DNA from: Escherichia coli | GTDB taxonomy: Bacteria > Pseudomonadota > Gammaproteobacteria > Enterobacterales > Enterobacteriaceae | Assembly (NCBI RefSeq): GCF_013122565.1 | Contig: NZ_CP053258.1 | Reading direction: 5' to 3' (one strand) | DNA length: 64,000 bases | Shown here: in pieces, positions 38,221 through 42,735 of the stretch | Position numbering within the stretch: position 1 is the stretch's first letter | Layout: each line of letters opens with the position of its first letter | The notes under the pieces: model-generated | Database searches by the model: none | Told to the model about the DNA's origin: nothing | The model's input: the letters and a program-made list of their open reading frames with translations, nothing else | Position numbers and translations under genes: made by a program

Positions 38221-38475
38221 ATGCAAAATCAAGGAATGAATATCCAAAGCAAACTATACGCATATTTAAATAAATATGACACTCGTCTTACAGAAGAAAA
38301 AATTGCGATTGAGAAAGCCATTAGAGAGTTACATTTTAGCAGCGAGCATGTTGATAACAAGAAAATAATACTGAAGTTACTATCATTTTTATCATATACA
38401 GATGATGTTGTCGAAAAAGACATTATCAGAAATGCATTGGAAGTGGTTCTTCTTTTTACTTCCGATGATATTTAA
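38221..38475 (+). CDS. AriR/YmgB-family small protein (paralogue of ariR)
   Basis: 84-aa ORF; C-terminal NKKIILKLLSFLSYTDDVVEKDIIRNALEVVLLFTSDD aligns with Ari[39 protein letters not shown]; weak RBS. Confidence 0.65.
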   Translation: MQNQGMNIQSKLYAYLNKYDTRLTEEKIAIEKAIRELHFSSEHVDNKKIILKLLSFLSYTDDVVEKDIIRNALEVVLLFTSDDI

Positions 38476-38717: not shown

Positions 38718-39041
38718 ATGAAGTGGATAGTAATTGACACGGTAATTCAACCTACATGCGGTATATCTTTTTCAGCCATATGGGGTGATATGAAAATGAT
38801 CGTCTGGTATCAATCTACTATATTTCTCCCTCCTGGCAGTATATTTAAACCGGTTAAATCTGGTATTATCTTTAAGGATAAAGAATACCCTATTACTATT
38901 TATAACATCGCACCATTCAACAAGGATTTATGGAGTTTACTCAAAAGCAGTCAAGAGTGTCCTCCAGGAGAAAGCAAAATAACAAATAAATGTTTTCATA
39001 ATAGTTGCATTATAAAAATATGCCCATATGGGCTCAAGTAA
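38718..39041 (+). CDS. iraM: anti-adaptor protein IraM (RpoS stabiliser)
   Basis: 107-aa [15 protein letters not shown]...ICPYGLK; matches my recollection of K-12 IraM; position adjacent to icd 3' end. Confidence 0.8.
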
Positions 39042-39143: not shown

Positions 39144-40394
39144 TTACATGTTTTCGATGATCGCGTCACCAAACTCTGAACATTTGAGCAGCTTAGCGCC
39201 TTCCATCAGACGTTCGAAGTCATAAGTTACGGTCTTCGCGTTGATTGCGCCTTCCATACCTTTAACAATCAGGTCTGCGGCTTCAGTCCAGCCCATATGG
39301 CGTAACATCATCTCTGCGGAGAGAATAATAGAGCCTGGGTTAACTTTGTCCTGACCGGCATATTTCGGCGCAGTACCGTGGGTGGCTTCAAACAGGGCGC
39401 ATTCGTCACCGATGTTTGCGCCAGGGGCGATACCAATACCACCAACCTGCGCTGCCAGGGCGTCAGAAATGTAGTCACCGTTCAGGTTCATACAGGCGAT
39501 AACGTCGTATTCAGCCGGACGTAGCAGGATCTGTTGCAGGAACGCATCAGCGATCACGTCTTTAATGACGATCTCTTTGCCGGTGTTCGGGTTTTTAACT
39601 TTCAGCCACGGGCCGCCGTCGATCAGTTCACCGCCAAACTCTTCACGCGCCAGCTGGTAGCCCCAGTCTTTAAACGCGCCTTCGGTGAACTTCATGATGT
39701 TACCTTTGTGCACCAGGGTCACAGAGTCACGATCGTTAGCAATTGCGTATTCGATCGCTGCACGAACCAGACGTTTGGTGCCTTCTTCCGAACACGGCTT
39801 AATACCGATACCGCAATGTTCCGGGAAACGAATTTTCTTCACGCCCATCTCTTCACGCAGGAATTTAATCACTTTCTCGGCGTCGGCAGAGTCAGCTTTC
39901 CATTCGATACCCGCATAAATGTCTTCCGAGTTTTCACGGAAGATAACCATATCGGTCAGTTCAGGGTGTTTAACCGGGCTTGGAGTGCCCTGATAGTAAC
40001 GTACCGGACGCAGGCAGATGTAGAGATCCAGTTCCTGACGCAGGGCAACGTTCAGAGAGCGAATACCGCCACCTACTGGAGTGGTCAGCGGGCCTTTAAT
40101 GGCAACGCGATATTCACGAATCAGATCAAGGGTTTCAGCAGGCAGCCAGACATCCTGACCATAAACCTGTGTGGATTTTTCACCGGTGTAAATTTCCATC
40201 CAGGAGATTTTACGCTCGCCTTTATAGGCTTTCTCGACTGCAGCGTCGACCACTTTCAGCATGGCTGGGGTTACATCTACACCGATTCCATCACCTTCAA
40301 TGTAAGGGATAATCGGATTTTCAGGAACGTTGAGTTTGCCGTTTTGCAGGGTGATCTTCTTGCCTTGTGCCGGAACAACTACTTTACTTTCCAT
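39144..40394 (-). CDS. icd: NADP-dependent isocitrate dehydrogenase
   Basis: 416-aa ORF matching K-12 Icd; intact 3' end with no prophage junction. Confidence 0.97.
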
Positions 40395-40854
40395 TCACCT
40401 CTCCTTCGAGCGCTACTGGTTTGCTCGTCTGCCACCACGTTGCATATGCGTTTGCGTCCTGCGATACGGATGCTTTAGAGCAATTTTTTGTTAATGATTT
40501 GTAATTGGCTTGTCAATACTACCCTATTGTTTGCCGTCATGAAAGATGCGCGTTATTAGGCTATAATGCGGCAATTCATAATCTCTGAAAATACCATGCA
40601 AAAAACTTCTTTTAGACCAAAGACAGTATTTTCCCGACCTTCAAATAAAGTATTAAATATCAATTATTTACACCAGACTTTAAGCAATAAAAAAACCACC
40701 AGAGATAACTAACAGGGTGCTATTTGGTCAAAATTTGACATTACTCGATTCAGCGACTAACTCACTTTGAGCACTATTGGGAAAATTATCAAAAGTCATG
40801 GTTGAAGCGACAAGCAACGAGTAAATTATGGCATCCACCCTTTTTGAGGTTCAC

Positions 40855-40947
40855 ATGAAACGCTTTGCACTGATAGCTGTGACACTCATTGCCTTTACTG
40901 GTTCTAGTTCTGCATCTGCTGCAACCGAAGAAATCAACTTCAAGTAA
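40855..40947 (+). CDS. 30-aa mini-ORF with signal-peptide-like sequence
   Basis: ATG 40855 with GAGG SD at 5-nt spacing; MKRFALIAVTLIAFTGSSSASA-ATEEINFK; same frame as downstream 149-aa ORF, separated by two stops. Confidence 0.35.
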   Translation: MKRFALIAVTLIAFTGSSSASAATEEINFK

Positions 40948-40980
40948 CAGAAACACTATATAACAATGGAGTGTTGAAAA

Positions 40981-41430
40981 ATGGATACTACCGAAGAACG
41001 CAATGGAACATATTTCTACAGAGGACACCCGAACCTGTCCAAAATAGAACTACTCAACGTCATATTCCTTGAAGAATTCTGTAAGGAATTGGGGATTGAT
41101 TCGGTATCAGGTGCAGCAATCTTATCTGGTCAACCTTGGCTGGGTACAAGAGCGAAGCCGGAAGGGGCAACCCTGGGAACAAGTGTTGTCTCAAAGTATG
41201 CGCGTATACTGATGAGAGATGCACGCATGCCTTTTGGTATTTCTGTTCATACAACAGTGGGTGTAAGGATGCAGAAATCTAATAAGCTTGCTGCAATTAT
41301 CGCTCGTTGGGTCCCGTGGATTGGTTGGGCTTCACTGTCGATGAGTCTTTACAGGATTTCGACTCGTACCCAGGAAAAATACAATCTGATTGCCAAACCT
41401 CAAGACCGTATTAAGTGGACTTCCTTCTAA
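40981..41430 (+). CDS. hypothetical basic protein (149 aa), first gene of an islet gene pair
   Basis: ORF from track; net positive charge; AGA/AGG codons rare in backbone; stop overlaps start of next ORF (TAATG). Confidence 0.6.
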   Translation: MDTTEERNGTYFYRGHPNLSKIELLNVIFLEEFCKELGIDSVSGAAILSGQPWLGTRAKPEGATLGTSVVSKYARILMRDARMPFGISVHTTVGVRMQKSNKLAAIIARWVPWIGWASLSMSLYRISTRTQEKYNLIAKPQDRIKWTSF

Positions 41431-41765
41431 TGGCGACAACAATCACAGACGAAGTTTTAGCACTGTTCCGTGATGAGATTCCAGGTTATCAGGATGATCA
41501 CGGGAAGGAAATTCCGTTAGAACTGGACTCTGATTTGTTCGACTATCCACGAGATGATTTAGAGGACGCTATACGGAAATACAAAGAGAGGTTTGGGATT
41601 AACCTGGATAATCTGGAATGGTCTTTGTACCTTCCGTGGGAGTCTGCACCATTGCTTCAACGATGGTTCAAGCTCAAGCGGGAAGAGGTAGAAACAACAC
41701 GTTTACCGTTAACTGTACGGATGTTTGCAGAATCAGCAGAAGCGGGAAAATGGCTGTATCAGTAG
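41430..41765 (+). CDS. hypothetical acidic protein (111 aa), second gene of an islet gene pair
   Basis: ATG 41430 overlaps upstream stop (TAATG coupling); strongly acidic (MATTITDEVLALFRDEIPGYQDDHGKEIPLELDSDLFDYPRDDLEDA); track ORF begins at in-frame ATG 41415. Confidence 0.6.
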   Translation: MATTITDEVLALFRDEIPGYQDDHGKEIPLELDSDLFDYPRDDLEDAIRKYKERFGINLDNLEWSLYLPWESAPLLQRWFKLKREEVETTRLPLTVRMFAESAEAGKWLYQ

Positions 41766-41773
41766 AATAAAAA

Positions 41774-41800
41774 AGAAGGCTGCGATGCCCTTCTTATTAC
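41774..41800 (+). terminator. weak terminator-like hairpin after the islet gene pair
   Basis: AGAAGG-CTGCGATGC-CCTTCT hairpin 9 bp after stop, followed by TATTACT (poor T-run). Confidence 0.35.
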
Positions 41801-42096
41801 TGCTGATGATGGTAGTGGTAAAGCATCATCCTGAACTTAAACAGTGAAGTGCTGTCACCCATCAGTAATACAGAAACACTATTTTCATACCAGTATTTAT
41901 TCAATTCATCAATGTAAAATGTGTTCATTGGGCCATATTTATCACCATGCAGCCACACAACCGCTGCTCACTAACCCAGGTATTGATGAAACCGCGCTGA
42001 AGAGCCTGAACCCTGAACCTCTAACGAGTACCTTCAAAGTCCAATGCAATCCGACACTGTGCTAACCTCTGCGTATAGCTCTATTTGGAATTTACC

Positions 42097-42735
42097 ATGA
42101 AATACTTTAGCGATTCTAAATCTTCTTTTAGAAAAAAACAGGTTAGTCGACTAAACTCGCAACACACCACTAAGCGTAAACCTGAAAACCAGCCCACGCG
42201 TGTGATCCTGTTCAATAAACCCTACGATGTTCTTCCGCAGTTTACCGATGAAGCCGGGCGCAAAACATTAAAAGAATTCATCCCGGTTCAGGGCGTTTAT
42301 GCAGCAGGTCGTCTTGACCGCGATAGCGAAGGGTTACTGGTGCTGACCAATAACGGCGCGTTGCAGGCGCGTTTAACCCAGCCGGGCAAACGCACCGGAA
42401 AAATCTATTATGTGCAGGTGGAAGGTATTCCCACACAAGACGCACTTGAAGCCTTGCGCAATGGCGTAACCTTAAATGATGGCCCTACCCTGCCCGCAGG
42501 CGCGGAGCTGGTTGAAGAACCCGCGTGGTTATGGCCGCGGAATCCACCAATTCGTGAACGCAAAAGTATTCCCACCAGCTGGCTGAAGATCACCTTATAT
42601 GAAGGACGTAATCGCCAGGTGCGCCGCATGACCGCCCATGTTGGTTTCCCCACGCTGCGACTAATTCGCTATGCGATGGGTGATTACTCTTTGGATAATC
42701 TTGCCAATGGCGAATGGCGAGAAGTGACAGATTAA
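42097..42735 (+). CDS. rluE: 23S rRNA pseudouridine synthase RluE
   Basis: Body matches K-12 RluE ([22 protein letters not shown]...GEWREVTD); start uncertain (ATG 42097 or TTG 42085) and N-terminus may differ from K-12. Confidence 0.85.

Follow-up and report, generated by a model that had tools for sequence, protein, structure and literature searches.

Orphan hcp islands of type VI secretion systems (T6SSs) bring together small effectors that are carried in the Hcp tube and immunity genes that lie adjacent to them. Another class of accessory DNA consists of integrating elements which, like e14 in icd, replace one end of the host gene into which they insert. The locus described here can be set beside both. 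It lies in an Escherichia coli chromosome, within a 64-kb stretch that was analysed as a whole and is called the window below, and it contains a gene for a 149-aa protein preceded by a 30-codon open reading frame (the mini-ORF) whose predicted product looks like a signal peptide. An earlier note on this DNA had offered two accounts of the pair: either both are the remains of a single secreted precursor that nonsense mutations split, or the mini-ORF is an independent small secreted peptide or leader. The coordinates of the features concerned, together with their variability, are given in Table 1.

Table 1. Features of the rluE islet in the window and the proportion of variable alignment columns across ten haplotypes.
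Feature	Position	Strand	Variable columns	Remarks
Left direct repeat	40602..40616	+		AAAACTTCTTTTAGA; end of the orphaned rluE 5' stub that starts at 40566
Accessory islet, ~1.5 kb	40617..42117	+		Inside the rluE 5' end; from alignment with an islet-free strain
Islet segment	40617..40760		15.8%	
Best-conserved islet stretch	40761..40854	+	2.1% (2 of 94)	94 bp upstream of the mini-ORF
Shine-Dalgarno-like GAGG	40846..40849	+		5 nt 5' of the mini-ORF ATG
Mini-ORF, 30 codons + TAA	40855..40947	+	20.4%	ATG 40855, stop TAA 40945-40947; signal-peptide-like; only in Escherichia
Spacer	40948..40980	+	9.1%	In-frame TGA 40975-40977; GGAG 40968-40971 is the RBS of the 149-aa gene
Complete STM2901-family gene, 149 aa	40981..41430	+	3.1%	NF045926; candidate Hcp-linked toxin/effector
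DUF1493 gene, 111 aa	41430..41765	+	4.2%	PF07377; candidate immunity or partner protein
Right direct repeat	42118..42132	+		AAATCTTCTTTTAGA; within rluE as now annotated

The islet lies between icd (39144-40394, minus strand) and the plus-strand series rluE-nudJ-mnmA-hflD, and was inserted after codon 17 of the annotated rluE. The direct repeats at its ends are imperfect over 15 bp and share an exact core of 11 bp, CTTCTTTTAGA; between the two copies of the rluE 5' end no homology longer than this 11-15 bp repeat was found. In strains with the islet rluE is re-annotated from an ATG at 42097 and its N-terminus is changed. The old start at 40566 remains as a stub ORF of 48 aa, and the 50 bp past the right repeat diverge from K-12-type rluE. 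Most E. coli genomes match just the first 222 bases after icd, while 374 of 5426 complete genomes (~7%) carry the whole 1.7 kb, as does one other Escherichia species. The 1.5-kb islet contains two annotated genes, of the STM2901 and DUF1493 families, and no integrase, transposase or other mobility gene was found within it. The rluE islet is similar to e14 in that it sits in a host gene, is bounded by a short direct repeat and provides a substitute gene end, which keeps rluE intact; however, e14-type elements replace the 3' end of their target, whereas the rluE islet replaces the 5' end and does so without an integrase. The window has no e14 prophage downstream of icd; iraM (38718-39041) follows icd directly, a YmgB/AriR-family gene lies beyond iraM at 38221-38475, and in the K-12-like strain DL21 the corresponding place is taken by two small genes, ymgL and ymgK.

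The 149-aa ORF makes up a complete gene of the STM2901 family (NCBIfam NF045926; precomputed Pfam PF26636), which has a ribosome-binding site to itself and is initiated independently. Its residues 8-142 cover positions 1-140 of the 140 positions of NF045926 (156.8 bits against a cut-off of 110; 3.3e-46), it is an ordinary member that shows no difference from the family, and PGAP labels it an STM2901 family protein in identical loci. The GGAGTG / GGGGTGAG motif of the spacer in front of it is also present in other genera. The 111-aa ORF that follows matches PF07377 over positions 3-107 of 108 (103.2 bits, gathering threshold 21; 1.6e-29), and its start overlaps the stop of the STM2901 gene in the sequence TAATG, through which the two genes are translationally coupled.

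The positional facts behind the idea of a split precursor were confirmed: the ribosome-binding site, the start and the length of the mini-ORF are as described, the starts of the two ORFs are 126 nt (42 codons) apart in the identical frame, and TAA 40945 and TGA 40975 are the two stops in between. The idea itself was rejected. The 149-aa ORF by itself fills the whole STM2901 model, and MDTTEE is the start of every homologue inspected, in 61 database homologues (most of them 149 aa long) as well as in 48 genomic loci down to 38% identity. Longer gene calls of 160-171 aa reflect upstream alternative starts, such as MEISFSLMHGMSGRQRNWGIG-MDTTEE, and the residues that they add are not signal-like. 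Neither a signal peptide on a family member nor an uninterrupted homologue spanning both ORFs was found among the 61 proteins and 48 loci, and no fused signal-MDTTEE form was present in 5.8 billion proteins or in 1.84 billion representatives. Searched with tblastn and blastn, none of the 47 non-Escherichia loci has the mini-ORF, and in many of them hcp takes its place, in all three relative frames; the mini-ORF matched only E. coli and Escherichia sp. E1V33, and in the latter a 1-bp deletion breaks the shared frame. Absence from related loci and a different frame are the very observations that the earlier note had itself set against a common origin, and both were made. That note had also called the shared frame weak evidence, with good reason, since at p = 1/3 it carries no information; that the two ORFs have a frame in common is a coincidence. 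A single secreted precursor broken by two nonsense mutations, which the frame in common and the mere two stops between the ORFs might have recommended, is therefore next to impossible in our estimation, and the 149-aa protein does not include the mini-ORF.

What precedes the STM2901 gene in other bacteria is, in most loci, a gene for Hcp, the tube protein of type VI secretion, which is 160 aa long and ends 8-13 bp before MDTTEE. An Hcp gene (PF05638, 1e-30 to 6e-33) was found within 3 kb of the STM2901 gene in 36 of the 47 non-Escherichia loci; it is directly upstream and full-length in 26, directly upstream and 5'-truncated in two, and elsewhere within the 3 kb in eight more. In 38 of the 47 the STM2901 gene has a DUF1493 match as its neighbour, and these include every one of the 25 loci whose identity is 63% or more. 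The hcp-STM2901-DUF1493 trio is flanked by unrelated housekeeping genes that differ between genera; bearers of the hcp-linked form include Enterobacter, Citrobacter and Klebsiella michiganensis. STM2901 and DUF1493 form a mobile cassette, and the Escherichia copy of this cassette is one that lacks hcp and sits in the 1.5-kb islet. The E. coli locus of the window has neither hcp nor a detectable relic of it.

The three-gene unit with an orphan hcp is seen in most of the Enterobacterales loci (L005-L049; for example L006:2506-3782 and L020:2507-3782). Several diverged STM2901/DUF1493 copies occur per genome in Erwinia typographi (L017, L035, L037) and in Raoultella terrigena (L027, L036). Tandem or inverted pairs are also found, with multi-copy loci such as L034:3001-6042 and L016:1793-3776, and truncated copies are present at L037, L043, L044, L046 and L050. 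The multi-copy pairs resemble arrays of polymorphic toxin/immunity genes.

The relatives of the cassette share with orphan hcp-effector-immunity islands the order of hcp, a small polymorphic protein and a small coupled partner, and like those islands they are multi-copy, include truncated copies and lie between housekeeping genes; the window copy differs in having no hcp and no known toxin fold. Because the gene layout is that of an orphan Hcp-effector-immunity island, we infer that the 149-aa protein is a candidate Hcp-linked toxin and that the DUF1493 protein is its putative partner, and the arrangement suggests that the two may be a type VI effector/immunity pair. The N-terminal motif MDTTEE-x-NGTYFY-x-G (window 40981-41020) is nearly invariant down to 38% identity, while the remainder of the protein diverges; this motif could be a delivery or Hcp-binding tag. 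For the 149-aa protein no known fold was found, and neither structure nor sequence tied it to a known toxin. The model of the DUF1493 protein (pLDDT 81) is in Foldseek weakly similar to acyl carrier proteins (E = 0.34, probabilities of at most 0.90) and has L-D-S-D-L at residues 32-36, where acyl carrier proteins have their D-S-L phosphopantetheine site, but unlike in those proteins the serine of the DSL motif is not conserved, being variable in distant DUF1493 homologues. In the literature searched there was nothing on the function of STM2901 or DUF1493, STM2901 being merely listed as a gene next to SPI-1, and no paper linking either to a T6SS.

The product of the mini-ORF in the window, whose full translation is MKRFALIAVTLIAFTGSSSASAATEEINFK, can be written MKRFALIAVTLIAFTGSSSASA-ATEEINFK with the hyphen at the predicted cleavage point. 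The earlier note's description of a Sec-like signal with an ASA-A site holds for this allele: all three regions of a Sec-type (signal peptidase I) signal peptide are present, with K2 and R3 as a positive n-region, an 11-residue hydrophobic core (F4-F14) and A20-S21-A22 followed by alanine, for a signal-like part of 22 residues. It differs from such signal peptides in having 8 codons after the site, so that a mature exported domain is absent, and in the lysine that stands in the core in 343 of 374 genomes. PGAP annotates no gene at the mini-ORF in the eight islet-bearing RefSeq records inspected, and a search of the literature for its peptide strings returned no paper.

In order to judge the pattern against chance we used a home-made rule, not SignalP, which asked for K or R and no D or E before a core of at least nine uncharged residues averaging 2 or more on the Kyte-Doolittle hydropathy scale, and for A-x-A 3-8 residues later. 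Of 958 ATG-initiated ORFs of at least 25 aa in the 64-kb window three passed: potD, which encodes a genuine periplasmic protein; dadA, a false positive by way of its FAD-binding N-terminus; and the mini-ORF. First-order Markov shuffles of the window yielded 0.07 strict matches per 64 kb, or 0.01 when a Shine-Dalgarno sequence was also required, and random DNA of the composition of the islet (39% G+C) yielded 0.06 per 64 kb, or about 1e-4 per ORF. For the 364-bp region upstream of the 149-aa gene about 3e-4 strict matches are expected. The signal-like shape of the mini-ORF is beyond chance, and it follows that the mini-ORF descends from, or is, a real export signal.

Within Escherichia the peptide varies a great deal. 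The window and PT62 have ...TLIAFTGSSSASA... and 6EVA has ...TLVAFTGSSSASA...; the database cluster P0063 (...TLVAFTGSGSA...) has a 6-bp deletion, E400634 (...TLVAFTGSA...) a 12-bp deletion, and the majority allele (...KLVAFTGSASA...) a 6-bp deletion combined with T10K. In Escherichia sp. E1V33 the 1-bp deletion gives MKRFALIAVTLVALLVQVLHLLQPKESTSSTRNTI, the original stop has become TAC, and this frameshifted form still has a hydrophobic N-terminal helix. A 96-nt probe of the majority allele matched at 99% or better in 92% of the islet-bearing genomes, that is, in the 343 which carry the T10K allele and in which the peptide fails the signal rule; T10K is a single event whose frequency is inflated by clonal sampling. 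The signal feature is not conserved among orthologues, given T10K, the deletions in the c-region (three in-frame, of 6, 6 and 12 bp) and the frameshift. Every E. coli haplotype nonetheless retains the mini-ORF's ribosome-binding site and start as well as its ATEEINFK-stop end, and the GAGG is unchanged in 10 of 10 aligned haplotypes. The deletions fall in an imperfect repeat of hexanucleotides (GTTCTA GTTCTG CATCTG), and since each E. coli deletion removes a multiple of six their in-frame character needs no selection; they could equally fit selection for an open frame.

The contrast in variable columns (Table 1) indicates that constraint within the islet is weakest on the body of the peptide and strongest on the sequence upstream of it, which includes the ribosome-binding site and the start. 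Between the window and the majority type the mini-ORF differs by 2.3% and an indel while the two genes differ by 0.9%; between the window and E1V33 the figures are 5.4% and a frameshift against 2.4-3.0%. The ratio of nonsynonymous to synonymous variable codons in Escherichia is 4:1 for the mini-ORF, which proves little because the two annotated genes, at 9:5 and 8:5, are also mostly nonsynonymous. An argument in the style of dN/dS was dropped, as substitution ratios do not separate the mini-ORF from real genes.

We searched for a longer gene from which the mini-ORF might have come. A 49-aa query made up of an upstream extension, the mini-ORF and its read-through was run in a word-indexed search against the 5.8 billion proteins and matched five clusters only, of 35-44 aa, all of them alleles of the mini-ORF. 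An exhaustive phmmer search with the 30-aa peptide over the 1.84 billion representatives found no longer relative, the mini-ORF itself being the only match, and a tblastn search for a parent gene on plasmids gave a single match, to an E. coli record. The 364 bp upstream were also searched for a degraded hcp, and no signal was obtained by tblastn and blastn with eight Hcp genes or by an nhmmer profile of hcp and its intergenic region; a likeness of ...AAACACTATATAA to the 3' end of hcp that was read by eye was indistinguishable from chance. The upstream region showed no similarity to the non-Escherichia cassette loci.

The well-conserved 94 bp in front of the mini-ORF are probably the expression region of the cassette, comprising promoter and 5' UTR. 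A promoter scan found no consensus promoter in 40761-40854, a stretch that showed no RNA family or stable structure either, and the sole promoter-like site on the plus strand precedes the old rluE start, at 40539-40567. Inspection by eye of a perfect TTGACA at 40735-40740 showed no usable -10. Since no plus-strand terminator was found up to 42200, it is plausible that transcripts from the rluE promoter run on through the cassette and into rluE.

Of the accounts considered, the one to which we give an even chance is that the mini-ORF is the fossil 5' end of a gene for an exported protein, joined to the front of an hcp-less copy of the cassette and kept for its expression signals. The fossil would comprise the ribosome-binding site, the start codon, a Sec-type signal peptide and about eight mature codons, the body of the gene having presumably been deleted as the hcp-less cassette arose. 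Selection would since have retained the upstream expression region while the peptide drifted. The stub may still be translated, and its product, an 8-residue mature peptide if cleavage takes place, would have no function of its own; transcription would probably come from the rluE promoter, the conserved 94 bp or both, and pass through the cassette into the re-started rluE. Against a fossil stand the failure to find a parent gene, which leaves the improbability of the pattern as the argument in its favour, the conserved 94 bp without a consensus promoter, and the in-frame deletions with the retained start, ribosome-binding site and end, which could mean selection for translation. Of the two alternatives in the earlier note, the split precursor has fallen and the independent peptide or leader survives as a less likely one; because the body of the peptide is poorly conserved, however, the evidence leans to a decaying stub over either form of the latter.

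A functional small protein, be it a membrane peptide of one helix or a signal whose cleavage sets a short peptide free, would explain the good ribosome-binding site and ATG, the hydrophobic N-terminus beyond chance that survives as a helix even in E1V33, and a frame that is open in every sampled E. coli haplotype with all E. coli indels in frame; small single-helix membrane proteins are, moreover, common in E. coli. Such a protein would however be confined to one genus and missing from the 47 other cassette loci, its body would be the most variable segment of the islet, a lysine would interrupt its hydrophobic core in most genomes, E1V33 would have lost its frame, a cleaved product would have just 8 residues, and it would be without relatives among the representative proteins. 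We regard it as rather unlikely, including the proposal that such a peptide would work together with the cassette and, for instance, modulate the STM2901 protein where the linked hcp is missing. The fuller version, in which a living Escherichia-specific exported or membrane peptide was recruited to the hcp-less STM2901-DUF1493 cassette and controls or accompanies the 149-aa protein, seems to us quite doubtful. If instead the mini-ORF were a translated leader (uORF), the act of translation tuning STM2901-DUF1493 expression or mRNA stability, then a conserved upstream sequence, ribosome-binding site and start, a body free to vary, frame-preserving indels and a stop just 33 nt ahead of the next start would all be expected. 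Yet the region has no Rfam match and no stable or alternative RNA structure or excess folding energy (z = 0.10 and -0.20), the downstream gene is served by a separate ribosome-binding site, the other genera have no leader, the gene there simply coming after hcp, and a canonical A-x-A signal is not expected of one; a leader is unlikely. That the mini-ORF arose by chance in non-coding, AT-rich DNA and is signal-like by accident is very unlikely: T-rich codons do favour hydrophobic runs, the ORF was picked after a scan of 64 kb and PGAP makes no call, but the frequencies of strict matches in shuffled and random DNA given above speak against such an accident.

The 149-aa gene is an already annotated family member, and its in-frame arrangement with the mini-ORF means very little in itself; annotators should neither merge the two ORFs nor call the 149-aa gene a pseudogene. 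The Hcp linkage and the insertion in rluE are more useful by-products of this work than the question of the mini-ORF. As the cassette lies within the rluE coding region, about 7% of complete E. coli genomes have a different RluE N-terminus. The tight linkage of STM2901 and DUF1493 to an orphan hcp across the Enterobacterales leads to a testable hypothesis, that the two families may be a type VI effector and its immunity protein.
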